A DNA stretch of 62,894 nucleotides from Bacteroidota bacterium (GTDB lineage Bacteria > Bacteroidota > Ignavibacteria > Kapaibacteriales > NICIL-2). Shown here piece by piece: positions 33,918 through 62,894 of this stretch. The translations under genes were made by a program, and so were the position numbers. Position 1 is the first letter of the stretch. Each line of letters opens with the position of its first letter. The stretch spans positions 1 through 62,894 of the forward strand of contig JBJOLU010000227.1 of the NCBI GenBank assembly GCA_046052705.1, in the 5' to 3' direction. The notes beneath the pieces were generated by a model. That model searched no databases, was not told where the DNA came from, and worked only from the letters and a program-made list of their open reading frames with translations.

Positions 33918-36422
33918 TCAATAATATGCCTTTTTTCGCCGCCATCCGATTTCCTCGTCAGGCTCGTCGGTCTGTAACCGCAAAAATCCACCCTGCCTAA
34001 ACCGGATGAGGGCCTGCACCGAGCTATCCAATAAGTCATCGTGCTCCGCATTAGGAAATCTCGCCATTTCCTCAATTACTTCATCAGCCCACCTCGCGTC
34101 CGGTGCCCATACTTTACCCGAGGCAAACAAATCTGTAACCGAATTGAGACGCGCAAATTTGTCATTACCGCGCGATGGCGTATATTCACTAACCGGAATA
34201 CCCATACGCCTTAACTCAAATATCAACGGCGCCCCAGCTGCCTTCGCTTCAATAATAAATGCGTCAGGCTCCCATTCTTTCCACGAATTAAATGCTGCTT
34301 GTTTTAATTCCGGGAACTCCCATTTATCCTTAAACGCATCCAGCAATATGATATTCACATCATTGGGGTCTTCGTTAAGATTAAAAATACCCCAAGTCGT
34401 ACAGGCCGAATAGTCCGACCTCTCGCCTTTGGTAAAGGCTGTATCCCAAGACTGGATAATGAATTCACAATTAGGCGGACGATCTTTATTCCATATACGC
34501 CACCACTCACGCTTAATAATCGCACCCGCTTCGCCAGTCGGCTGTTGCTGGTACTGTGCGTTCCACTTGTAGGAAGGTAACTCTTCTTTAAGAGCAAGAA
34601 GCTCTTCGAGACTCCAGAACTCAGGCCATAGAGGTGCGCCCGATGGAAGGATGGCCGGTAGCTCGATCACTTCCCATTCGTCCTCGTGTCGTGAGTTCCT
34701 AATGATCTTGCCCGTTAAGTCCTTGTCACTCCAGCGAGTCATAATTACGACAATGGCCGCCCCTGGCTGGAGACGTTGCCGTGGTCCGGAGGTGTACCAT
34801 TCATACACGCCGTCAAATACGGTCGGGTCGCCTTGGGCTAACTTGGCCTCTTGCTCGCTGTGCGGGTCATCGATGATAAGAAGGTCAGCACCTTTACCTG
34901 TCACCGTACCTCCAACGCCGATAGCAAAATAGCTACCCCCACCCGAGGTATCCCAGCGTCCAGCCGCTTTGCTATCAGCCCGAAGATCAACACTCGGAAA
35001 CACTTTCTTATAGTGATCCGACCCAACCAGGTTTCGAACCTTCCGTCCGAAGCCAACAGCCAATTCCGCCGTGTTTGAACATTGGATAACTTTCTTCTCC
35101 GGGTACTTTCCTAAAAACCAAGCCGGCAAAAGAAACGAGCCAAACTCGGATTTGGTGTTGTGCGTACAAATGTAGCCTTCTCCGGCCAAAAACAAACCGT
35201 CTTGACGAGCTACCTTGATACATTGCGTACTGCCAGTTTCGTTTAGTTTTTCTACTTTGATGTACCTTCCGAATGCTGGCTTGTACTTGATCGTCCGATT
35301 TTCTTTCCTGTCTAAATGAGCAATGTTGGAAGCATAAAAGCTAATCCTCCATGTCTTGCCGTAGCTTTTGTCTCCAATTTTTGCCTCGGTAGAGATCAAT
35401 GAGTTCTTAATCCCAAGGCTGGCTAGAAGTTCGCGCACTTGATTGATGAGACTCAAGTTGCTTTGCGCGAAGAAACATTGACCTGCTTTTGACACGTTGC
35501 CATCCGTGTCCATCAGACCTTTGAGCAACCATCTACGTTGATCTACGCTACCCATCAGATACGCCTGCGGGATGTGTTTGTTCCCTAACACACCAAGATC
35601 GCGGAGTTTTTCTTTTAGACCCAAAACTCCGAACGTCATCGGGGTAGATTGGGCAGTCGTTCTGTACCCAAGCGCCTCGAACATTTGCCGAATGCCAACC
35701 TGATCGTCATCGTGACAGGTAATTACCCCTTGATTCTTGTGCCCATCACCGAGCCATACACCAAGAACATAGGGTGCTATCGGCAAGGATTGCCGTTCGT
35801 AAATGACGGGATTCACGTCAGGCAATCTTGGCAATCGTGGATTTTTGACATGCCCCGCCAAGAAGTGTGTGCTCCCACCTCTACCCATTCTCAGCACTTC
35901 ACCGTTCTGCCTACGCCATAACTCTTCAGTCGTGAAGTCGTGATAGACATCGTGCTTTCGGTGCAACCTAACCGTCCAAAGATGCTCGCCATCAACATCC
36001 AGGCTGAATCCATCATCCGTAGTCACGCGATAAATGTCTCTATCGTGAAACACTTCTGATTTTCCAATTACCTCTGTTGGAATCCCATCAGGCCCGAAAA
36101 CATAATCGCCAACCAATAAGTCGGCCATCGTTTTCCATCCGTTCAATGTTGGTATCTTCATATCTAACCTTATCGCGTGCCGAGGGGCCATGTTGATGAT
36201 GAGTCTCTTCACCTTCCCCGCCGCGATTTCCTCGAACTTCTTCGCCATCAAAGCATGGTGCCGACCGTGGATAAACGACGGCCACATCATCTTCACAAAC
36301 GCCATGAAGTCCGCTTGCGCCTTCTCCCGCTCCAGCGCCTCTTTATATGCGCCTACCTGAGCCAACAACTTCTGTTGCTCATTCTCAGGCAGCTTAGAAA
36401 TCAACGCGGCCAAGTCGCTCAT
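33918..36422 (-). CDS. terL: Terminase large subunit interrupted by a 340-aa intein
   Basis: Exteins: INMAPRH|TKSE (P-loop), LLIIDDPH (Walker B), C-terminal RNase-H-like nuclease motifs (QSWDTAF, IIEAKAAG, EHDDLLDS); 494 aa after intein removal. Confidence 0.9.
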   Translation of the reverse strand: MSDLAALISKLPENEQQKLLAQVGAYKEALEREKAQADFMAFVKMMWPSFIHGRHHALMAKKFEEIAAGKVKRLIINMAPRHAIRLDMKIPTLNGWKTMADLLVGDYVFGPDGIPTEVIGKSEVFHDRDIYRVTTDDGFSLDVDGEHLWTVRLHRKHDVYHDFTTEELWRRQNGEVLRMGRGGSTHFLAGHVKNPRLPRLPDVNPVIYERQSLPIAPYVLGVWLGDGHKNQGVITCHDDDQVGIRQMFEALGYRTTAQSTPMTFGVLGLKEKLRDLGVLGNKHIPQAYLMGSVDQRRWLLKGLMDTDGNVSKAGQCFFAQSNLSLINQVRELLASLGIKNSLISTEAKIGDKSYGKTWRISFYASNIAHLDRKENRTIKYKPAFGRYIKVEKLNETGSTQCIKVARQDGLFLAGEGYICTHNTKSEFGSFLLPAWFLGKYPEKKVIQCSNTAELAVGFGRKVRNLVGSDHYKKVFPSVDLRADSKAAGRWDTSGGGSYFAIGVGGTVTGKGADLLIIDDPHSEQEAKLAQGDPTVFDGVYEWYTSGPRQRLQPGAAIVVIMTRWSDKDLTGKIIRNSRHEDEWEVIELPAILPSGAPLWPEFWSLEELLALKEELPSYKWNAQYQQQPTGEAGAIIKREWWRIWNKDRPPNCEFIIQSWDTAFTKGERSDYSACTTWGIFNLNEDPNDVNIILLDAFKDKWEFPELKQAAFNSWKEWEPDAFIIEAKAAGAPLIFELRRMGIPVSEYTPSRGNDKFARLNSVTDLFASGKVWAPDARWADEVIEEMARFPNAEHDDLLDSSVQALIRFRQGGFLRLQTDEPDEEIGWRRKKAYY
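35157..36176 (-). mobile_element. Intein (residues 83-422 of TerL) with LAGLIDADG homing-endonuclease domain; Ala1, class-3-like WCT signature
   Basis: Starts AIRLDMKIPTLNGWKTMADLLVGDYV (block A with Ala1), DGEHLW (block B His+Trp), LGVWLGDG and LLKGLMDTDG (LAGLIDADG x2), TQCIKV (block F Cys), GYICTHN|T (block G, +1 Thr). Confidence 0.85.
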
Positions 36423-37464: not shown

Positions 37465-38190
37465 TCACTTAGCATTTGTGCTGTCGGTGCTGGCTGTGCC
37501 TGGCGTGTCTTGTGGTGCTGATAGCTCGGCCAGTAGCGATGAGGCGTCCTGTTCGATGCGCTCACCATCTATAGTCTTGCCCGACATCAATGCCTGTAAT
37601 TCGCCCATTATCTTTGTGCGCAACGCATCTGAGCTATGATGTACAATTGATTCTTTCCGCTCAGTAAATGCAGCGACTTCTGTGACCTGACCGAGCGTTT
37701 TTACAGCCTGAGTACGTATCGCCGGAGGTGTTTCGGGATCGATCACTTGCTGTACAAGTGTTTGAATTACAAGGTTTCTTAGCTGCTCAGGGGTGCGATG
37801 TTTCGCCGCTTCATTAGCTAGCTGATACGCTTCTATTTCCGCCTGTATTCGGGCATCGCGTTTCAATCGGCTGGCATGATCCCCGATTGTTTTTGGTTTT
37901 CCTGTGCAGTTGTACGCTTTCCTGTAGGCATCTGCGCCTGTGTGTCCCATTGCGACGTTGTATGCGTATGCTCTTTGCTTTGGTGTGAGTGTTGATTTGC
38001 TTACTCCTACGACGTGGAGCATTTGATCTGGGGACATCTCTTTAAGTGTCTGTCTTGTTTCTTGTATCTGTCTGCGTGTGAGCCGTTTCGCTTCGCTACT
38101 CTTTTTCTTTTCCGCGCCCTCACTCCCACCTGACAGCCCGCGCTTGCCCCTACCTGCTGGCTCGATCTTGTCCCACTTGTCTTCGCTCAT
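37465..38190 (-). CDS. terS: Terminase small subunit (Terminase_2/P27-like); start trimmed to MSEDKW
   Basis: LTPKQRAYAYNVAMGHTGADAYRKAYNCTGKPKTIGDHASRLKRDARIQAEI; GAGGGGGG SD before ATG 38190. Confidence 0.75.
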   Translation of the reverse strand: MSEDKWDKIEPAGRGKRGLSGGSEGAEKKKSSEAKRLTRRQIQETRQTLKEMSPDQMLHVVGVSKSTLTPKQRAYAYNVAMGHTGADAYRKAYNCTGKPKTIGDHASRLKRDARIQAEIEAYQLANEAAKHRTPEQLRNLVIQTLVQQVIDPETPPAIRTQAVKTLGQVTEVAAFTERKESIVHHSSDALRTKIMGELQALMSGKTIDGERIEQDASSLLAELSAPQDTPGTASTDSTNAK

Positions 38191-38313
38191 CTTTTCCCCC
38201 CTCTTGCCTGTCCTGTACTGCATCGCACTTGATCTTAGCATGAGAACGGAATAGGAACGTACGTAACAGCCCTAATGCACACAGGCACATATCACCTGAC
38301 CTGATAGGTTACA

Positions 38314-38342
38314 TTGACTATCATCAGGTGTGTATCTATCAT
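38314..38342 (+). promoter_or_regulatory. Sigma70-like promoter of the plus-strand early operon (TTGACT-17-TATCAT)
   Basis: Near-consensus -35/-10 with 17-nt spacer, overlapped by inverted repeat CACCTGA/TCAGGTG; downstream leader has CTGGTGGCGC x2 and GCCCC-TTCG-GGGGC hairpin (38441-38454). Confidence 0.55.
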
Positions 38343-38475
38343 CCATTCATGCGCTGCACCTGGTGGCGCTGGCATTCGGTGCTGTGTATGTCGGAGCGCA
38401 TGCCTATATCTGGTGGCGCATGGGCGCTCTTTAACCTTTCGCCCCTTCGGGGGCTTTCACTGGAGATACAAGAAA

Positions 38476-38688
38476 ATGAAAATCACAGTCACTCTCAAAA
38501 ACGTGTATGGCAACCAGTCCGTCTACCCGCTCGACGAACACGCCCACCGATTTGCAAAGATTGCCGGAACTAAGACACTTTCGCGCGATGCGCTGGCGAA
38601 TGTCCGCGCCCTTGGGTTCGAAGTGGTCTTCGTTGATCCTGCGGCCGTCGCCCTGAGTGAATCTATCAATGGGGGTAATAATGTATAA
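38476..38688 (+). CDS. Small early protein (70 aa)
   Basis: GGAGA SD; MKITVTLKNVYGNQSVYPLDEHAHRFAKIAG... Confidence 0.6.
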   Translation: MKITVTLKNVYGNQSVYPLDEHAHRFAKIAGTKTLSRDALANVRALGFEVVFVDPAAVALSESINGGNNV

Positions 38689-38938
38689 ATTTATTTCCGA
38701 TCCCGGCCATAGCTGGTTGGAAGTTCCCTTGACCGAATTACACGCTCTGGGCATCGCCAATAAAATCAGTAGCTATAGCTACCAAACCGGCGATCTAGTT
38801 TATCTAGAGGAAGACTGTGACGCTGCAATTTTCGCGCAAGCAAAAAAAGCGCGGAATGAGCCCCTGCCAATTGAAGAGGTGTTCCAAGAAAACACATTTA
38901 TTCGCAATCTGCCACGCTTTGCGGGGGTGCAGTCATGA
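38681..38938 (+). CDS. Small early protein (85 aa), MYKFISDPGHSWLEV family
   Basis: Start overlaps previous stop; recurrent phage family of unknown function. Confidence 0.6.
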   Translation: MYKFISDPGHSWLEVPLTELHALGIANKISSYSYQTGDLVYLEEDCDAAIFAQAKKARNEPLPIEEVFQENTFIRNLPRFAGVQS

Positions 38939-39210
38939 AACACACCCCCGGACCTTGGCTGTTTCAACAATGTGGGAGCCCTGGATACTTTGCCATTGTC
39001 ACTACTCAAGGGAAACCCGTTCCATTGATCGGACCAACGGCTATCCACAATGCTCGTTTGATCGCTGCCGCTCCCGACATGGCCGATTTGCTACTTGCTG
39101 CCCTACCCTATGTCGAAGAGGGCGAAGAGTTCAACAAACCCAACTGTCGCACCTTGTCCCGTGATATCCGGGCGCTGTTGCGCGTGATCGATCCTGAATG
39201 TGGGGTTTAA
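38935..39210 (+). CDS. Small early protein (91 aa), TPGPW...NARLIAAAPDM family
   Basis: ATGA overlap with previous gene; recurrent phage family. Confidence 0.6.
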   Translation: MKHTPGPWLFQQCGSPGYFAIVTTQGKPVPLIGPTAIHNARLIAAAPDMADLLLAALPYVEEGEEFNKPNCRTLSRDIRALLRVIDPECGV

Positions 39211-39211
39211 C

Positions 39212-39694
39212 ATGAAACAAATTTCCGTTTTCACTTTTGACGAATTAAGTGATGATGCTAAAGAGCATGCGCGCCAGTGGGGACGTGAAATGCTCGCGCT
39301 TAATCCTTGCTGGGTTGATGAGTCCAGCGATTCCATAGACTCTTTCCTCACCCACTTTGGCGCGCGCTTGCGTTCGTATGATTTCGACCGACTGCACTAT
39401 GACGTGGACGCACCGAATGACATTTTTCGTGGATTGCGTCTAAACGCATTTACGCGTGATGCGATGCCCACAGGATATTTCCTTGATTGTGTGCTGTGGG
39501 AGACTTTTTACGACAGTTTCAAACGTACCGGAAGCGCAAAAATCGCCTTTCATGATGCGCTACATGCTGCGCTTGTCGCGTTTCGTGATGATCTTGAAAG
39601 CCAACAATCGGACGACTACGTAGACGATTTCCTAATTGCCAACGAGTATTTTTTCTTGGCATCTGGTGATCGCGTTCCAGCCTCTGTTGCGTGA
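39212..39694 (+). CDS. Early protein (160 aa), FTFDELSDDAKE...ANEYFF family (unknown; seen next to anti-restriction genes in plasmid leading regions as I recall)
   Basis: ORF with start 1 nt after previous stop. Confidence 0.55.
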   Translation: MKQISVFTFDELSDDAKEHARQWGREMLALNPCWVDESSDSIDSFLTHFGARLRSYDFDRLHYDVDAPNDIFRGLRLNAFTRDAMPTGYFLDCVLWETFYDSFKRTGSAKIAFHDALHAALVAFRDDLESQQSDDYVDDFLIANEYFFLASGDRVPASVA

Positions 39695-39757
39695 TCCCTT
39701 AAAGCCCGGCGTGCTGGGCTTTCGGGGCGACATGCCCACAACTGGAGATAAAACAAA

Positions 39758-40273
39758 ATGGAAACACCATCTGTATACGTCGGCACCTATGCCAAATATA
39801 ACTCGGGCAGTATCAAGGGCGCGTGGATCAATCTCGAAGACTACGCAGGAGACCGCGAGGGCTTCTATGCCGCATGCGCCGAGCTGCATTCGGACGAAGC
39901 TGACCCTGAATTTATGTTTCAAGATTTCCAATGTTTCCCGCGTGAGTTTTACTCTGAAAGCGGCCTGCCCGAAGAATTGTTTGAATGGCTGGAGCTTGAT
40001 GACTATGACCGCGAGTTGCTGGAAAAGTACGCTGAGGCAACCGGGTACGACATCACCGAACTAACGATAGAGAATGCCCGTGAAGCATTCTGGGGCCGGT
40101 TCGATTCTGGCGCGGATGCTGCCCAGCAGATTGCAGAAGAGTCTGGCGCGGTTCCGAAAGACTTACCGTGCTGGATCGTCATTGACTGGCAAGATTCGTG
40201 GGACAGTAACCTTCGTCATGATTATTGCACGGCTGGTCGGCATGGCGATCTGTGGATTTTCTCGAATCGCTGA
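39758..40273 (+). CDS. ardA: ArdA-type anti-restriction protein (DNA mimic, anti type I R-M)
   Basis: VYVGTYAKYNSGSIKGAWINL ... EADPEFMFQDFQCFPREFYSESG ... acidic; matches ArdA signature from memory. Confidence 0.85.
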   Translation: METPSVYVGTYAKYNSGSIKGAWINLEDYAGDREGFYAACAELHSDEADPEFMFQDFQCFPREFYSESGLPEELFEWLELDDYDRELLEKYAEATGYDITELTIENAREAFWGRFDSGADAAQQIAEESGAVPKDLPCWIVIDWQDSWDSNLRHDYCTAGRHGDLWIFSNR

Positions 40274-40300
40274 CCACAACAATAAAGGGAGATAAAAACA

Positions 40301-40498
40301 ATGCAAGCGCAACTGATAGCACGTTTCACGAATCACCGCGACGGACTCGAAGGCCGTGTGTATCGTTTGAATGACGGCCGTTTGTCCGTAGTGTTGTTTG
40401 ACCTGGGCGCCTTCGAAGCGGTGCCCTCTTCCCGTATCTATTCGCCCGAGAAACTTGACGCGGCGCACACCTACGCTCGTTTGATTGCGGGGGTTTGA
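40301..40498 (+). CDS. Small early protein (65 aa)
   Basis: ORF in operon. Confidence 0.5.
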   Translation: MQAQLIARFTNHRDGLEGRVYRLNDGRLSVVLFDLGAFEAVPSSRIYSPEKLDAAHTYARLIAGV

Positions 40499-40499
40499 C

Positions 40500-40685
40500 A
40501 TGCTCTATCTTTATGGTTTGATCTTTGCATCGTCCCTCGCGGGGTCCTGTGTTACCGTTTTTCTGTGGGGGGAGTACGTCCTGAGTGATCTATCTGCCGT
40601 GGTGCTGGTGATCGCGCAACTGATGATTGCCAGTCTAGCTGCCGTTATCATCGACGAAAGGGAAAAAAAATGTTCTGGATTGTGA
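40500..40685 (+). CDS. Small membrane protein (2 TM)
   Basis: MLYLYGLIFASSLAGSCVTVFLW ... VVLVIAQLMIASLAAVII. Confidence 0.5.
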   Translation: MLYLYGLIFASSLAGSCVTVFLWGEYVLSDLSAVVLVIAQLMIASLAAVIIDEREKKCSGL

Positions 40686-40876
40686 CCGATGCCGGCATCT
40701 ATGCCTCCCCGAAAATCTCTCGCGCTCTTACGGGCGACATGATCGGGCACTCGTTTTTCATCGACGAACACGCCTTTTTAGTAGATGCTGCTGTGTCTCG
40801 GGAGCATGCTTTTGACGGAGCTATCTCGTTTCTTGTGCGCTGGCAAAAAAAGGTTAATGCGAAAAATGACAGATAA
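40670..40876 (+). CDS. Small early protein (68 aa)
   Basis: Last ORF before terminator. Confidence 0.5.
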   Translation: MFWIVTDAGIYASPKISRALTGDMIGHSFFIDEHAFLVDAAVSREHAFDGAISFLVRWQKKVNAKNDR

Positions 40877-40940
40877 AGAGAGCATTTTTTACCTTGTCAT
40901 CTTCGCACTTTTCCTATTATATGTTTTCCGATAATGCTTT

Positions 40941-40968
40941 ACCCCGCCATGCGCGGGGTTTTTCTTTT
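40941..40968 (+). terminator. Rho-independent terminator of the early plus-strand operon
   Basis: ACCCCGC-catgc-GCGGGGT followed by TTTTTCTTTT. Confidence 0.8.
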
Positions 40969-41072
40969 GGTGCCCTATGAATCCTAAAATCTTTACCATC
41001 CACCTCATCGAATCTGACGGATACATCACCGCTCACGCTGACTACACTGGCGAAGGTGAAGCGGTGCTAGAA

Positions 41073-41978
41073 CTAGGGCTTGACCTGATCGGACAACTGG
41101 CGGCACTTGATGCTGCTGGCGAACGTGTCAGGGTCTCTCCGATTCTCCGGTGCACGCTTGTACAGTGATCGCCAGAGGTTACTGGCTGCGCGAAACAGTC
41201 CGTGCTCTTGATGGTAGTCATTAAAATCCTGGCCGACTGTGGGACTGATCCAGTACGGCCACCCTGTTTTTTTGGCGATTGTCTCGCCCGTACCGCTTTT
41301 GTCATTATCCGCGACCACAAGACCCGGTTTCAAACGACTAGCGATTGTTAGCAGGTTGTTCGCACTGAAACATACGTGAATTTTCCATAGGTGTTTTAGT
41401 GACTGCATCGCGGCGCGGATAGATAAGCCTGTCGCGTATCCTTCACAGAGTATGTCTGGCCCTTGCCGTCCGATGATGAACTCTGCGCCTTTTGTGCGCT
41501 GTCCGTACAGGAACTTTTTATTCCCTTCGGCGTCGATTGTTTGCATTCCTATCAGACGGTTAAGCTCATCGTACATTGGAACTACAAAATGCTCCGTCTG
41601 ATCGTGGCACCAGATCAACCCCTTCTCGTCTGGAAATCCTTTCTTCCGAAGGTAGTCGTGTCTTCCATAGACGCATCGATTTAAGATCATCGAGGCCCGC
41701 ATCGCGGCGTTTTCCTGTAGCCGTTTGCGCTCTTCTTGGGCTTGGGTCAGGGCTTGCATGGTGACGCGCGGATCAATCTTGATCGGCTTGTCTTCACGCC
41801 AGAAGATTACCTCCGTGTGGACAGCGTGATCCTGTAGGAATCCGTGGTCGCCCATCCACTTCACGGCACCGTTCTTTTTCTTGGGGTGTGACTCGGTGGG
41901 GAACCGCTCCCACACTCCCAGGCGAGGCGGGTGCGTGATGATGATGCCGTGAGCACAGCAAAATTCGATGAAGGTCAT
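41073..41978 (-). CDS. Toprim-domain primase-like protein
   Basis: ILCEGYATGLSI (Toprim Glu) and VVADNDKSGTGE (DxD); 301 aa, upstream helicase. Confidence 0.7.
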   Translation of the reverse strand: MTFIEFCCAHGIIITHPPRLGVWERFPTESHPKKKNGAVKWMGDHGFLQDHAVHTEVIFWREDKPIKIDPRVTMQALTQAQEERKRLQENAAMRASMILNRCVYGRHDYLRKKGFPDEKGLIWCHDQTEHFVVPMYDELNRLIGMQTIDAEGNKKFLYGQRTKGAEFIIGRQGPDILCEGYATGLSIRAAMQSLKHLWKIHVCFSANNLLTIASRLKPGLVVADNDKSGTGETIAKKTGWPYWISPTVGQDFNDYHQEHGLFRAASNLWRSLYKRAPENRRDPDTFASSIKCRQLSDQVKP

Positions 41979-53595: not shown

Positions 53596-53631
53596 AAAAC
53601 TCACTCGAACCGGAGATACAACCCCACTACT

Positions 53632-58943: not shown

Positions 58944-59206
58944 ATAATCAGCTAACCAATAAACAACGGGAGCACTTGGCAAGAGTCAAGTCGCTCCCTT
59001 GTTCTGTATGTGATGCCTATCCACCTTCGGAGGCCCACCACATCAATCAAGGCGATCAATACACCTGTGTCGCCTTATGTGCCGACTGCCACCGAGGTAG
59101 CCTAAACGGACTCCATGGGCAGCGCCGGATGTGGAAAGTTAAAAAGATGGATGAATTGTCGGCGCTCAACGTCACCATCGAGCGCCTTCTGGACTCACTC
59201 CTTTAG
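58940..59206 (+). CDS. HNH-type nuclease resembling P1 Ref (RecA-dependent nuclease) family
   Basis: LPCSVCDAYPPSEAHHI ... ALCADCHRGSLNGLHG. Confidence 0.55.
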   Translation: MNNQLTNKQREHLARVKSLPCSVCDAYPPSEAHHINQGDQYTCVALCADCHRGSLNGLHGQRRMWKVKKMDELSALNVTIERLLDSLL

Positions 59207-62200
59207 AGCCACCCGCAGTTCTTCAGCCTGACGTGCGATCTCTGCGATGATGAGTTTCGCACGATCAATCTCTTGCCTCTTTTCTGCTCCCGTCATATTC
59301 GGATTGGCCGTGATGATGCTGATGTACTTCCGCATCCTCGACATGTCATCCGATGCTTTATCGTAGAACTTAGCCAGCTTGATCTTATCGGCCTGGTCGA
59401 TGGCGATCTTCTGCGCTTTCTCAATTTCTCCCAGTGTTGCATAGTGGCGCATGTCCGCCATGGCTTGTTGAATCTTCTGGTTATTGTCGTAGAACGAAGT
59501 AACAAACTTCGATTGAGTCGCCGGAAGTTCTTTGACGAAACCCATTGAGAACGTATCCGCGTACTTCATGTCTGGATACGCGCCCTTGGAGAACGGCATC
59601 GCTGCGTAATGGGCTGTGGAGGTAGCCATGGCTCCCAGCCATCCAAAGTATCCCTTGATGAGATATTCAATCTGGACGGGAGACAGTTCCGCTTTCTCCG
59701 TGGTCACGGTTGCGATGGCCTTACTTACCCCGCCAAGCCCTTTGCCGATCCAAGAAGTCGAATCTGCAACACGTTCTTGTTTGGACAATTTCTCCATGCC
59801 CGCCGTTTCAATCGGCGCACCGGTAAAGCTGTCTTTGTTGGCGTAGATATCTAGAACAGGCTTGAACATCTGCGGGATAGGATTAATCGCAAAGGTATCG
59901 GATAGCATCCGTGTCATCGCCTCACCGAACACTTTGCCTTCTGCCCCTTGATCGACAATCTGCTCCAGCGATCTTTCGACCAACGTCCCGAACGCACCCA
60001 GTTCGAACGGTTTGGGGATACGGAAGGCATGTTCCATCCCAGGGAATTTTATCCACCAGAAGTTGTCACGGTCCCACTGTTCGCGCTTCTTGAACTCTTC
60101 GTCATCCTTAAAGGCATAGTACAACGCGGCAGAGGCCAAACCTACTCCGGCCAGAACAATCGCAAATCTTTCGCCCTTTTTCTTGTCGGACTCACTGATT
60201 TCTTTGCCCGTCAGACTGCTGTAAATGAGCCTATAGGTCGGAGTAATCCCGTCACGACCCAATTTGTACAGCCCTTGGACTCGCGCATTCAAGAACGGAA
60301 TCACCATCGTCAAACGACGGAATGCCGGGAACGAACCATGCAGGGTGAAATCCATCAGGTCTTTGGCATGGAACGACGCTTCCAAGTGCGACATCCCTTT
60401 GGCTCGGGCCTGTTGATAGATCGCCAGACGGTTGGCGTTTTCCATCTTGTTGCCCCACTCTTCGTACTTGTTGTACAGGTACTTGAGCCCGTTCTTGATC
60501 TTCTCTGGGGAGTCCAGAATGGTATTGTCTGGGACACCGGCTTTGACGAGACGCTTGATATTCTCGGACATCCCGCCTTCCATCGCGGCCCCGAACTTCA
60601 TCATGCCACCACCCGCCAAGGCGCCGATGTAATTCGGGTCTTTCGGGTCGTAGAAGTTCATGCCTTCGATAGCATTCATCACCGGGTTCTTTTTGATGTC
60701 TGCGATCGAGATAGCCGACACCGAATCGCGGATCAAGTTACGAACCCGGAATGCTGGAGAAATGGTCACGCCGAACTGAAGCATGTTCTTGAAGTTCTTG
60801 GCGACATCCAGCCACTTTCCTTGTGGCCCTAACCAGGTGATGCCAGCGATGGAATCCAAGAGGAGCGGATCATTAACTTCGTAGTACACCGGCATCCCGT
60901 CTTTGATTACGCTGACTGTGCCTGGCTTCTTGGTTGTGTGCCCCGGCAACAACTTACCGAGTACTTCTCTGCCATCTTTCGTTACCTTGTAGACAAGCCC
61001 GTTTTCGTACTCATACTGCGCTTTCATACTTGGACGCACTACATCCAGCTTTGACTGCTCAGCGGCCTGCAATACTTTGGTAGCTGCGATGTTCTTCATC
61101 GAAGCTGAAAGGATGTGAGACCAGTTCTGTACGATGTTCTGCATCAGATCGCCAAAGGCCAACTCTTTATTGCCCTTCAATTCTTTGCTGAAGAATTGAT
61201 CGGTCAGCTTCTCCCCCGACGTGGGAACGAGTTCGCCTTCCTCTGTGATCTTGTACATAGGAACGTAGTACAAGTCGCTGCTGAATCTTTTGTATCCTTC
61301 TTTGTCGATGATTCCTGCTTCCTTGGCAACATCAAGCACGGACTTGTTTAGCGCGTTCATCTTGCGCCGCACTTCGTTGTAGACCTCTGCACGCGGCCGA
61401 CCGCCTACATCGCCTTCAATCATTTCATCCTTAGCCTGCAACGCCTGGCTGGAGAATGAACGCTTTTCTTCTGGCAGATTTGCATCACGGCTCATCGCCA
61501 TCCAGACCAAGAACCGATCAACCTCTTTCCCTAAAGGTCTGAACGCTTCGTAAAGTCCTTCCGTGTTGGGTTTGATATTCAGCGCACCGCCGTCATTGAA
61601 CACCTGTCCATGAAACAGAAGCCCTTCCACTGCACCATCCACGGTGTTGGACATCCGCGCCAGCATGTATCCTTCGTCGCTGTACTTTTTGATCGCGCGA
61701 TACTTATCTAAGAATCCTTGTGCCATGCGCTCCCAGAATTTTTCACGCATGGAATTGATGCGATCGACTACGGTCTCTGGCTTAGGATTAAATCGACGCT
61801 GGATTTCCGCTTTGAGAGCATCGCTCTTAATGTCGCTGAACGATTCTGTTTCGATCTTTTCTTTCGGCGGCAGAACTTTGGCTTCGACCTTCCGGGCGAT
61901 TTCTTCTACTTTGCCCGGAGCACGGAGGCTCTTTGCCTCGCTTGTTGCGCGCCGCTCACCCGTTTTCAACTCACCGCGCTCAACCTTGCCGAAAATTTGT
62001 TCCGGCGATTCCACCTTGGTGAGCGCCGACTTGATTGCTTGGAACAGATTACGCAAGCGCGTCAGCAACGACTGGATCAATCCTGACGGAGCTTTCTTGG
62101 CATCGAAGTCAGCGAAAGCATCGGCCACCGCTTCTTCGGTGATCTTCTCCATGTCGCCGTTGTACTCACGCATGTAGGCGTCGTAGCGAGACTCTTCTCC

Positions 62201-62894
62201 GGCTCTCAGTGGCTTTCCATCTACGTCACGTTGCTTCAGATACTGGTCAATCCACTTGTCCTTAGCCATCTTGGACAGCGTTTTCCACTGGGCATCGGTG
62301 AAGAAGCCTAGCTCCCGGAGAGCATGGATAGCTTCATGGCGCAGATCACGGATGGGGTTGGCAGAGTCCGACGCGATCTTGATAAGTTGCTGTGCGTAGG
62401 AGCCTGCTTCCTTCAAGCCATCCACAAGGTTCAGACCAACATCTTTCAGGCCGAACTTGTTGAGCGTGGTGCGGAGGGTTTGTTCGAAGTCTGCGACTTG
62501 TTGTGCACGCTCTCCACCGAGGGATTTCTTTTCTTTCGGTTGAATTGGCTTGAGAAATGGAGCTGGAACTGCGGGCTGTTGTCCAAATAGATATTCCTGC
62601 ATCGATGCAATACTTGCCGGAGGGATGGTTCCTCCTTTTCCCGGTGTTTCACTTTTGAATGCCTGTGAGTTGAACCGGTCGCCTCTTGATTCTGCTTCGG
62701 CAATGGCATTGTCAATGAGCCACTGTGTTGCGTATTTTTCGCTTTTCTGTTTTGGGTATGGCGTCGTAAATCTGCCTGAAGAAGTAGAAAACACATCCCC
62801 GCCACGAATAGGCTGTTTATCCACAGGCCGTCCCTCGTAATCAAGTACCCGAGGTTCAAGAGCTTGTTGGACTTCTGGAGCTTTCCGCTCAATA
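59195..62894 (-). CDS. C-terminal part of the wrap-around ~1901-aa virion protein (unique portion 59195..62773 = 1192 aa + stop; track ORF 59195..62824 starts at an internal GTG)
   Basis: Frame remains open upstream of 62824 to the window end and joins 1..2127. It is large, helical and polyvalent-protein-like. Its stop overlaps the convergent gene 58940..59206 by 12 nt. Confidence 0.8.
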   Translation of the reverse strand, partial: IERKAPEVQQALEPRVLDYEGRPVDKQPIRGGDVFSTSSGRFTTPYPKQKSEKYATQWLIDNAIAEAESRGDRFNSQAFKSETPGKGGTIPPASIASMQEYLFGQQPAVPAPFLKPIQPKEKKSLGGERAQQVADFEQTLRTTLNKFGLKDVGLNLVDGLKEAGSYAQQLIKIASDSANPIRDLRHEAIHALRELGFFTDAQWKTLSKMAKDKWIDQYLKQRDVDGKPLRAGEESRYDAYMREYNGDMEKITEEAVADAFADFDAKKAPSGLIQSLLTRLRNLFQAIKSALTKVESPEQIFGKVERGELKTGERRATSEAKSLRAPGKVEEIARKVEAKVLPPKEKIETESFSDIKSDALKAEIQRRFNPKPETVVDRINSMREKFWERMAQGFLDKYRAIKKYSDEGYMLARMSNTVDGAVEGLLFHGQVFNDGGALNIKPNTEGLYEAFRPLGKEVDRFLVWMAMSRDANLPEEKRSFSSQALQAKDEMIEGDVGGRPRAEVYNEVRRKMNALNKSVLDVAKEAGIIDKEGYKRFSSDLYYVPMYKITEEGELVPTSGEKLTDQFFSKELKGNKELAFGDLMQNIVQNWSHILSASMKNIAATKVLQAAEQSKLDVVRPSMKAQYEYENGLVYKVTKDGREVLGKLLPGHTTKKPGTVSVIKDGMPVYYEVNDPLLLDSIAGITWLGPQGKWLDVAKNFKNMLQFGVTISPAFRVRNLIRDSVSAISIADIKKNPVMNAIEGMNFYDPKDPNYIGALAGGGMMKFGAAMEGGMSENIKRLVKAGVPDNTILDSPEKIKNGLKYLYNKYEEWGNKMENANRLAIYQQARAKGMSHLEASFHAKDLMDFTLHGSFPAFRRLTMVIPFLNARVQGLYKLGRDGITPTYRLIYSSLTGKEISESDKKKGERFAIVLAGVGLASAALYYAFKDDEEFKKREQWDRDNFWWIKFPGMEHAFRIPKPFELGAFGTLVERSLEQIVDQGAEGKVFGEAMTRMLSDTFAINPIPQMFKPVLDIYANKDSFTGAPIETAGMEKLSKQERVADSTSWIGKGLGGVSKAIATVTTEKAELSPVQIEYLIKGYFGWLGAMATSTAHYAAMPFSKGAYPDMKYADTFSMGFVKELPATQSKFVTSFYDNNQKIQQAMADMRHYATLGEIEKAQKIAIDQADKIKLAKFYDKASDDMSRMRKYISIITANPNMTGAEKRQEIDRAKLIIAEIARQAEELRVALKE
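62774..62894. repeat. Terminal direct duplication, copy 2 (identical to 1..121)
   Basis: Direct comparison. Confidence 0.95.

Follow-up and report, generated by a model that had tools for sequence, protein, structure and literature searches.

The eight small genes located between positions 38,476 and 40,876 of the window (the whole stretch of 62,894 nucleotides that was analysed) form an ordinary ArdA-bearing accessory island of the moron type. They belong to an uncultured tailed phage of roughly 62.8 kb, apparently non-integrating, for which no near-identical DNA was found among cultured phages. We consider it likely that the cassette is a moron-type accessory-gene unit sitting in the variable slot of this phage, in which ArdA is accompanied by a candidate second factor, encoded by orf4. 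The unit lies between the replication (helicase, primase) and packaging (terS, terL) modules, on the strand opposite to theirs, and appears to bring along a host-type promoter and a terminator as well as a candidate operator. The features of the locus are as follows.

37465..38241, minus strand: terS, small terminase subunit (phrog_51), the divergent left flank of the cassette
38293..38330, unstranded: imperfect palindrome across the -35 hexamer, candidate operator (arms of 13 bp, the left one with a 2-nt bulge)
38314..38342, plus strand: sigma-70-type promoter, TTGACT-17-TATCAT (10/12 match)
38343..38475, plus strand: untranslated leader with two copies of CTGGTGGCGC, a UUCG hairpin and a translation-initiation box
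38476..38688, plus strand: orf1, 70 aa, best conserved of all genes in the slot
38681..38938, plus strand: orf2, 85 aa
38935..39210, plus strand: orf3, 91 aa, phrog_1273 / PF27050 (Phage_P22_Y8K6), with a homologue in one related locus (L023)
39212..39694, plus strand: orf4, 160 aa, an acidic protein (net charge -14) from a large superfamily that is uncharacterised
39696..39753, plus strand: spacer between the two gene blocks, with a 13-bp hairpin, UUUC and a second copy of the box
39758..40273, plus strand: orf5, ArdA anti-restriction protein, 171 aa (PF07275, phrog_2059)
40301..40498, plus strand: orf6, 65 aa, orphan (coding score 0.228)
40500..40685, plus strand: orf7, 61 aa, two predicted membrane-spanning segments (GRAVY 1.22)
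40670..40876, plus strand: orf8, 68 aa, orphan (coding score 0.166)
40941..40969, plus strand: intrinsic terminator (7-bp stem with 6 G-C pairs, T-run)
40977..41168, plus strand: orf9, 63 aa, beyond the terminator (coding score 0.195)
41073..41978, minus strand: Toprim-type DNA primase (phrog_2249 at 1.1e-34), the convergent right flank

Coding-like codon usage shows that the ORFs of the cassette are real genes. The annotated frame was the best of six for all eight, with scores of 0.13-0.23 compared with 0.225 +/- 0.08 for the long genes of the phage, and a purine-rich sequence lies upstream of every one. The gaps between consecutive ORFs are, in order, -8, -4, +1, +63, +27, +1 and -16 nt, and translation is probably coupled within two blocks, orf1 to orf4 and ArdA to orf8. 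Each block is headed by the same motif, a hairpin and UUUC, then ACTGGAGATAMAA-N4-AUG. In the leader, the hairpin GCCCC-UUCG-GGGGC (38441-38454; -11 kcal/mol, z = -3.45) precedes the box ACTGGAGATACAA (38459-38471), and in the spacer the 13-bp hairpin (39696-39727; -20.1 kcal/mol) is followed by UUUC and further on by the second copy, ACTGGAGATAAAA (39741-39753). The cassette thus has two exact copies of the box, where chance would give 0.09 matches over the window as a whole.

Several other candidates were discarded. A third ACTGGAGATAMAA box, at 53609, has one mismatch, is not followed by a start codon and stands beside a minus-strand terminator. The two copies of CTGGTGGCGC, at 38360 and 38410, are not Chi sites, because no G precedes either of them and neither therefore reads GCTGGTGG. 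The leader as a whole does not qualify as a riboswitch or structured RNA (whole-leader fold z = -1.37, no Rfam family), and an ORF overlapping it (38314-38475) scored as non-coding by its codon usage.

The arms of the palindrome (CACCTGA(CC)TGATAG at 38293-38307 and CTATCATCAGGTG at 38318-38330) fold well as DNA (z = -3.43, with 1 of 200 shuffles equally good), and the element, a second copy of which is absent from the genome, may act as an operator. Promoter-like and terminator-like matches are not commoner than chance in the surrounding 5-kb stretch (6 against 4.5 in shuffles, and 9 against 5.7, respectively), so that the support for both sites comes from where they stand. The arrangement supports an independent transcription unit oriented opposite to terS and the primase. 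The earlier note had described eight tightly coupled small ORFs, transcribed against both neighbouring modules and bracketed by a near-consensus promoter and a strong terminator, with an inverted repeat over the promoter and a doubled CTGGTGGCGC and UUCG hairpin in the leader. All of these elements were found again at the coordinates listed above: terS and the primase both lie on the minus strand, and the arms of the repeat span the -35 hexamer.

ORF 39758 is, by its profile matches, a bona fide member of the ArdA family, which bears out the name first given to it. The Pfam model PF07275 matched over profile positions 1-135 of 155 (E 4.8e-16, 60.2 bits, cut-off 27), and phrog_2059 'anti-restriction protein' matched at 5.6e-15. 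The protein is similar to known members (Tn916 Orf18, ColIb-P9 ArdA) in its size (171 aa, against about 165 aa for the family) and in the extreme acidity of a DNA mimic, with 37 D+E versus 12 K+R, a net charge of -25 and a pI of 4.10. The ArdA dimer has an elongated three-domain fold that mimics B-form DNA, as in PDB 2W82 (Tn916 Orf18). From this solved structure the phage ArdA is very diverged (full-length pairwise match to 2w82_A weak, E 0.23, residues 2-138 against 2-132), and its likeness to a mimic is read from the sequence. It is borne by a phage and not by a conjugative element, and about 100 relatives were found in viral contigs.

As a DNA mimic, ArdA should bind the methylase/specificity core of the host Type I restriction-modification enzymes, and unmodified phage DNA would thereby be protected. 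Among 41 genomes related to the bin of the contig, 24 carry the specificity gene HsdS (PF01420), including four of the six from the same genus. It is absent from the bin holding the contig itself, and binning is a weak guide to the host of a phage. A similar arrangement is known from the class I early region of T7, where gene 0.3 (Ocr), also a DNA-mimic anti-restriction gene, is transcribed from a host-RNAP promoter amid small genes, with hairpins between coding blocks. The likeness has its limits, as Ocr belongs to a protein family unrelated to ArdA, and the hairpins of the cassette (5-13 bp) are too short for RNase III sites.

The comparison with related phages defines the slot. The gene order helicase-primase-(opposite-strand island)-terS-terL is kept in 20 related phages, whose islands measure 3.0-6.2 kb and whose island proteins form 140 clusters, 85 of them singletons. 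The backbone of these phages is thus conserved and the slot in which the cassette sits is hypervariable, and such a slot filled by an opposite-strand unit has the look of an accessory or counter-defence island. Among the genes of our cassette, only orf1 (13 of the 20 islands) and orf2 (eight of the 20, in seven independent contexts) recur, while ArdA, orf4 and orf6-8 are absent from all. Judged by this distribution, orf1 and orf2 count as conserved residents and not as arms-race cargo, and ArdA, orf4 and orf6-8 are exchangeable cargo particular to this phage. Other islands encode proteins with the ArdA C-terminal domain (L025 and L030), a DNA methyltransferase, DUF7227, DUF6884 and DUF7249. 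A larger group of 'ArdA-like' proteins (cluster c10) was rejected, as single-linkage had merged two unrelated groups, of which L025 and L030 alone carry the domain.

These features are those of phage morons and accessory slots: an own promoter and terminator, an orientation opposite to the neighbours, a fixed position between backbone genes, and content that differs between relatives. Morons usually comprise one or two genes, and eight to nine are found here. Furthermore, no tyrosine integrase was found on the contig, and the genes would therefore be expressed during lytic infection, not from a prophage. Islands of small genes anchored by ArdA are common and already recognised in phages and plasmids, so that the island itself adds little. 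The main gain is one of prioritisation: of the seven unnamed genes, orf4 has an independent comparative link to anti-restriction and DNA-entry contexts.

The protein encoded by orf4 belongs to a superfamily with 2,174 representatives of 160-220 aa, which share an N-terminal 'F-x-ELS-x-x-AK' helix and a C-terminal 'ANEYEF-x-x-G' strand; no Pfam or NCBIfam model matched the scanned members. Its model is confident (pLDDT 97) and found no match in the PDB by Foldseek. Strong acidity is a trait of the family, with a mean net charge of -14.9 +/- 4.5, versus -1.2 for island ORFs, and acidic columns are conserved at positions 11, 37, 92, 127, 134-135, 139 and 145. When the orf4 profile was run over 80 ArdA-centred viral loci, three proteins matched, with merely 23-45% mutual identity, and each was the immediate same-strand neighbour of ArdA; in 26 primase-selected loci there were no matches. 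A family member and an ArdA also stand 0.9 kb apart on a separate contig (L041). The orf4 superfamily is thus seen with ArdA in five contexts. None of the other cassette genes travels together with orf4.

Outside phages, the link is with plasmids and is visible through the profile only. A tblastn search of plasmids with orf4 returned nothing, and the narrow orf4 family has no plasmid member. At the level of the superfamily, the orf4 profile is homologous (hhalign 99.1%) to a family present in 105 plasmids, where the homologues stand amid SSB, DUF932, RadC and methyltransferase-helicase genes in leading-region-like arrays. The earlier statement that the family of ORF 39212 neighbours anti-restriction genes in the leading regions of plasmids therefore holds for the superfamily, including its ArdA-adjacent viral members, but not for orf4 itself. 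In jumbo phages, homologues lie within the annotated terminal repeats. A search of 400 other genomes of the class of the host found no copy besides that in the window, and the family is therefore not widespread in prophages or plasmids there.

The combination of ArdA with small unknown genes follows the logic of the anti-defence islands in plasmid leading regions (Samuel et al. 2024, PMC11541004), and the orf4 superfamily is common to plasmid arrays with SSB and methyltransferase-helicase genes. The resemblance is one of gene content only, as the cassette, part of a phage genome, has no oriT, relaxase or single-strand promoter hairpin, whereas leading regions adjoin oriT on the first-transferred strand and use single-strand promoters.

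Among the unnamed genes, these contexts single out orf4 as the one real candidate for a novel role in counter-defence, and as the likeliest to be a second counter-defence or establishment factor of the cassette. Its product might be, for example, a second nucleic-acid mimic, directed against another restriction or DNA-sensing system. A counter-defence role would account for the ArdA adjacency, for the plasmid arrays and for the location in the terminal repeats of jumbo phages, which enter first. The broader idea, that phages and conjugative plasmids share in this superfamily a new and widespread group of counter-defence or establishment proteins, acting with ArdA or parallel to it, is tentative and we regard it as rather doubtful. 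If the function of orf4 were shown, an annotation could be given to thousands of proteins that now go under the wrong label of 'antitoxin' or 'hypothetical'.

The remaining genes bear on a serious possibility, if short of a probable one: that the cassette is a generic early or host-takeover unit in which ArdA is the sole counter-defence gene, and the rest adjust host physiology, phage replication, transcription or exclusion. The two hydrophobic segments noted earlier in the protein at 40500 were confirmed (Kyte-Doolittle peaks at residues 4-22 and 33-51), and orf7 could be, for instance, a superinfection-exclusion or membrane factor. Likewise, orf1 and orf2 could be conserved regulators or housekeeping early proteins, as both are conserved across the phage group and not variable. 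For orf1, no Pfam, PHROG or PDB match was found. The orf2 family comprises at least 237 proteins, some of which are encoded elsewhere beside antirepressor-like and RadC genes. Its invariant residues (D7, H10, W12, S33, L42, E43, E44, D45, D47, R75) and an invariant D/H/E/D/C cluster give it an enzyme-like or metal-binding look. With a confident AF2 model (pLDDT 95.5) that has no PDB match by Foldseek (best E 0.055), and with its relatives and its invariant acidic/His cluster, orf2 is a second cheap target. Moreover, neither relatives in IMG/VR nor a family match were found for orf6 and orf8, and searches of Pfam, PHROGs, NCBIfam, PADLOC and the PDB tied none of the seven unnamed ORFs to a known family of anti-defence or defence proteins. 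The models of orf2 and orf4 also showed no fold likeness to a described anti-defence family in the PDB.

Against this stand the turnover of the slot, which is typical of arms-race cargo, and the repeated placement of orf4-superfamily members directly beside ArdA and beside plasmid establishment genes, which is hard to ascribe to chance. The earlier proposal that the unnamed neighbours are counter-defence candidates is supported for orf4, by its comparative context, and weakened for the others: no known family is matched, and orf1 and orf2 are conserved residents.

It is unlikely that the cassette is not early at all, being constitutive or late, or silenced by antisense transcripts that run on from the minus-strand operons, with ArdA acting on progeny or co-infecting DNA or being packaged. 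The divergent spacer yielded no promoter for terS on the minus strand, a promoter-like site on that strand (41333-41304) is directed antisense into the cassette, and most relatives do not share the promoter of the cassette, as a match of at least 10/12 occurs in the equivalent divergent spacer of five of the 20 related loci. However, ArdA and Ocr are useful only when made at or before DNA exposure, and the host-type promoter, with its operator-like palindrome and own terminator, also argues for early expression. We therefore expect that the accessory unit would be transcribed early in infection.

Least of all do we expect orf4 to be the antitoxin of a toxin-antitoxin pair and the cassette an addiction or stability module: the plasmid homologues bear the NCBI label 'antitoxin of toxin-antitoxin stability system' (on which a literature search found nothing relevant) and one of them adjoins a Phd-family antitoxin gene, but the label has no underlying Pfam or NCBIfam model, a marginal ParD match occurs in only one of 81 orf4-family members (E 0.0056), no toxin-like partner recurs across about a dozen contexts, orf4 lacks both the antitoxin domain and the conserved adjacent toxin of type II antitoxins, and its family is all but missing from cellular genomes (in none of 400 other genomes of the class), in contrast to a stability system.

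Just beyond the terminator of the accessory unit lies a further small, conserved gene, orf9, which shares 96 nt with the 3' end of the primase gene, a part that is not conserved. Homologues of orf9 are found at the same place in two related loci (L010 and L014).

The result to follow up from this analysis is the orf4 superfamily, not the island that carries it. The phage genome is a single entire contig (C227) within a 2.15-Mb metagenome bin, and the 121-bp repeat at both of its ends (1-121 and 62774-62894) indicates a circularly closed assembly of ~62.77 kb. Two further contigs, one from JGI (62,769 bp) and one from Logan (18 kb), encode identical cassette proteins. The contig carries a tailed-phage gene set (terS, terL, portal, virion proteins, helicase, Toprim primase, exonuclease and Erf) and no tyrosine integrase. 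Nearly all of its genes lie on the minus strand, and the cassette forms a plus-strand block between terS and the primase:

37465-38241, minus strand: terS, flanking the cassette
38293-38307 and 38318-38330: imperfect palindrome CACCTGA(CC)TGATAG ... CTATCATCAGGTG, spanning the -35 hexamer
38314-38342, plus strand: promoter TTGACT-17-TATCAT, 10/12 match
38360 and 38410: two copies of CTGGTGGCGC in the leader
38441-38454: hairpin GCCCC-UUCG-GGGGC, fold z -3.45
38441-38471 (orf1) and 39696-39753 (ArdA), plus strand: copies of the head motif
38476, 38681, 38935, 39212, 39758, 40301, 40500 and 40670, plus strand: starts of orf1 to orf4, ArdA (ORF5) and orf6 to orf8
40941-40959, plus strand: terminator, 7-bp G+C-rich stem and T-run
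40977-41168, plus strand: orf9, 63 aa, directly beyond the cassette terminator
41073-41978, minus strand: primase, the convergent cassette flank

The promoter, inverted repeat, CTGGTGGCGC pair, UUCG hairpin, terminator and eight ORFs had been described in an earlier note, and all were recovered at the same positions. Across this 5-kb stretch, promoter-like and terminator-like matches are no commoner than in shuffles. The palindrome folds with a z of -3.43, equalled by only 1 of 200 shuffles, and has no second copy elsewhere in the phage genome. The leader taken whole is not unusually structured in the fold test and matches no Rfam family. A purine-rich ribosome-binding sequence precedes all eight ORFs, which follow each other at spacings of -8, -4, +1, +63, +27, +1 and -16 nt. 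In a codon model trained on the long genes of the phage (training windows score 0.225 +/- 0.08), the annotated frame scores best for each ORF (0.13-0.23), and an "ORF" overlapping the leader scores -0.28.

Two details are new relative to the earlier note: a two-block layout with a shared head motif, and orf9. The blocks, orf1-4 and ArdA-orf8, are both headed by a hairpin, UUUC, ACTGGAGATAMAA, four bases and AUG. The ACTGGAGATAMAA box occurs twice without mismatch in the cassette, where chance would give 0.09 matches in the whole window, and the hairpin-UUUC-ACTGGAGATAMAA motif was not found in related loci. This motif may act at both heads as a module for translation initiation or mRNA stability, or mark a cassette junction. 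The orf9 gene overlaps the last 32 codons of the primase gene, an unconserved stretch, and has homologues at the same position in two relatives (L010 and L014). Neither a ribosome-binding site nor a promoter is evident for orf9 itself.

The naming of ORF5 as ArdA holds, as indicated by matches to PF07275 (60.2 bits, cut-off 27) and phrog_2059 ("anti-restriction protein"), and by the net charge of -25 of this 171-aa protein (pI 4.1). About 100 relatives, with identities up to 61%, are present in IMG/VR. ArdA-anchored islands of small uncharacterised genes are a familiar pattern, to which this island adds another; the counter-defence roles proposed for the neighbours of ArdA are putative. None of orf1-4 and orf6-8 has a functional match in Pfam, PHROGs, NCBIfam, PADLOC or PDB sequences. 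The orf3 protein falls into phrog_1273/PF27050, a family without assigned function, orf7 has two hydrophobic segments, and no relatives were detected for orf6 or orf8. The orf2 family comprises at least 237 small proteins of about 85 aa (family alignment A5), with D7, H10, W12, S33, E43, E44, D45, D47 and R75 invariant and C46 nearly so. Its model is confident (pLDDT 95.5) and has no counterpart in the PDB (best E 0.055). This compact acidic/His/Cys cluster suggests a metal or catalytic site.

For comparison, we used 26 viral contigs with a primase 35-54% identical to that of the window, 20 of which span the region. All 20 keep the gene order helicase-primase-[opposite-strand island]-terS-p140-terL, around islands of 3.0-6.2 kb whose ORFs fall into 140 clusters, 85 of them singletons. 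A promoter of at least 10/12 occurs in the equivalent divergent spacer of five of the 20 relatives. This pattern as a whole is typical of a moron-type accessory slot with fast turnover. ArdA, orf4 and orf6-8 are absent from all the related islands, orf3 and orf9 recur occasionally, orf1 recurs in 13 of the 20 loci, and orf2 in eight, representing seven independent contexts. The slot fits the island proposed earlier, except that orf1 and orf2 are its stable residents and not cargo; for these two, a conserved function in the slot is more likely than counter-defence. Other cargo includes a DNA methyltransferase, DUF6884, DUF7249, and an HTH/sigma-70 region 4 protein. The commonest large cargo is a DUF7227 protein (223-248 aa, PF23872 at E 7e-74, Cys-rich N-terminus), found in seven of the 20 islands (L010, L011, L013, L015, L020, L021 and L033). 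Two proteins (L025 3388-3870 and L030 5582-5959) have the ArdA C-terminal domain alone; they may be variants of ArdA, truncated or remodelled, that occupy this slot in related phages. In both, an acidic helical N-terminus precedes the ArdA domain (phrog_25535; PF07275 at 2e-6).

The most telling point on orf4 is its association with ArdA. A search of 80 ArdA-centred viral loci (600 kb) with the orf4 profile yielded three proteins, all directly adjoining ArdA on the same strand. Their net charges range from -12 to -20 and their mutual identity is 23-45%. The profile has no match in the 26 primase-selected loci. On one additional contig, a family member lies 0.9 kb upstream of ArdA, which brings the independent pairings, window included, to five; no other cassette gene travels with orf4. 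The orf4 superfamily is a candidate for a new partner or analogue of ArdA. The family itself has 2,174 members (profile search, 1.84 billion representatives), with no informative name in the source databases and no credible Pfam match in any of the 81 scanned. It is uniformly acidic (net -14.9 +/- 4.5), at -9.2 charges per 100 aa versus -1.9 for island ORFs. AlphaFold predicts the orf4 structure with very high confidence (pLDDT 97); the model matches nothing in the PDB (best E 4.7), and in BFVD only uncharacterised phage proteins. None of 400 other genomes from the class of the host contains the family.

By profile comparison, orf4 is linked to a family of 195-215-aa proteins (99.1% probability, E 1.2e-18). 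This family occurs in 105 plasmids, of which 41 are conjugative, and carries the name "antitoxin of toxin-antitoxin stability system", a label with no HMM behind it. Its plasmid neighbours (SSB, DUF932, RadC, DUF6878 and a 1,450-aa methyltransferase/DEAD-helicase gene) resemble the gene set of the leading regions described in PMC11541004. The plasmid link made in the earlier note stands at superfamily level, but not for orf4 itself, which has no plasmid match by tblastn. Overall, that reading is partly supported: ArdA, the island character and this link hold. The 195-215-aa family also has 107 phage records, repeatedly within annotated direct terminal repeats of jumbo phages, which gives these phages one copy of the gene at either genome end, two in all. 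Such phages infect, for example, Caulobacter, Escherichia and Pectobacterium (MZ574430, MH588546, OQ718158, KU574722 and others). Elsewhere, orf4-type genes always lie within arrays of small same-strand genes, twice again beside an opposite-strand terS, followed on the far side by a primase (L037) or by other genes of replication type (L045). On an unrelated 40-kb contig, one small-gene array (L048 2577-6141) combines orf4-superfamily, orf3-family (PF27050) and Macro-domain proteins.

In the most likely working of the cassette, transcription by host RNA polymerase would begin at the sigma-70-type promoter, and the palindrome over the -35 hexamer could serve as the site for a putative repressor. 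The ArdA produced would titrate Type I enzymes. Possible roles of the two hairpin-plus-box heads are to set relative expression or to stabilise both mRNA halves, and the terminator would close the unit ahead of the primase gene. HsdS (PF01420) is encoded in 24 of 41 genomes related to the bin, which makes Type I enzymes common in the presumed host lineage. The phage-holding bin has no HsdS gene: either Type I systems are missing from this strain, or the assignment of the phage to this host, for which binning is weak evidence, is unreliable. The spacer 38242-38475 shows neither a minus-strand promoter for terS nor an obvious sigma-70 promoter for the late genes. Together with a sigma-70-like site within the primase 3' end (TTGAAA-18-GATAAT, 10/12, 41304-41333, minus strand), antisense into the cassette, this makes an antisense shut-off late in infection conceivable.

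Elsewhere in the genome, the 834-aa terL (33918-36422, minus strand) has a LAGLIDADG_3 match, and in relatives its match is interrupted, being confined to residues 4-83 and 421-834. An intein or homing-endonuclease insert that is missing from related phages would fit this pattern. The open-ended ORFs 1-2130 and 59195-62893 (minus strand) fuse across the circle into one gene of ~1,940 aa, the C-terminal part of which matches phrog_18222, phrog_9854 and phrog_14770, very large virion-type proteins without assigned function.
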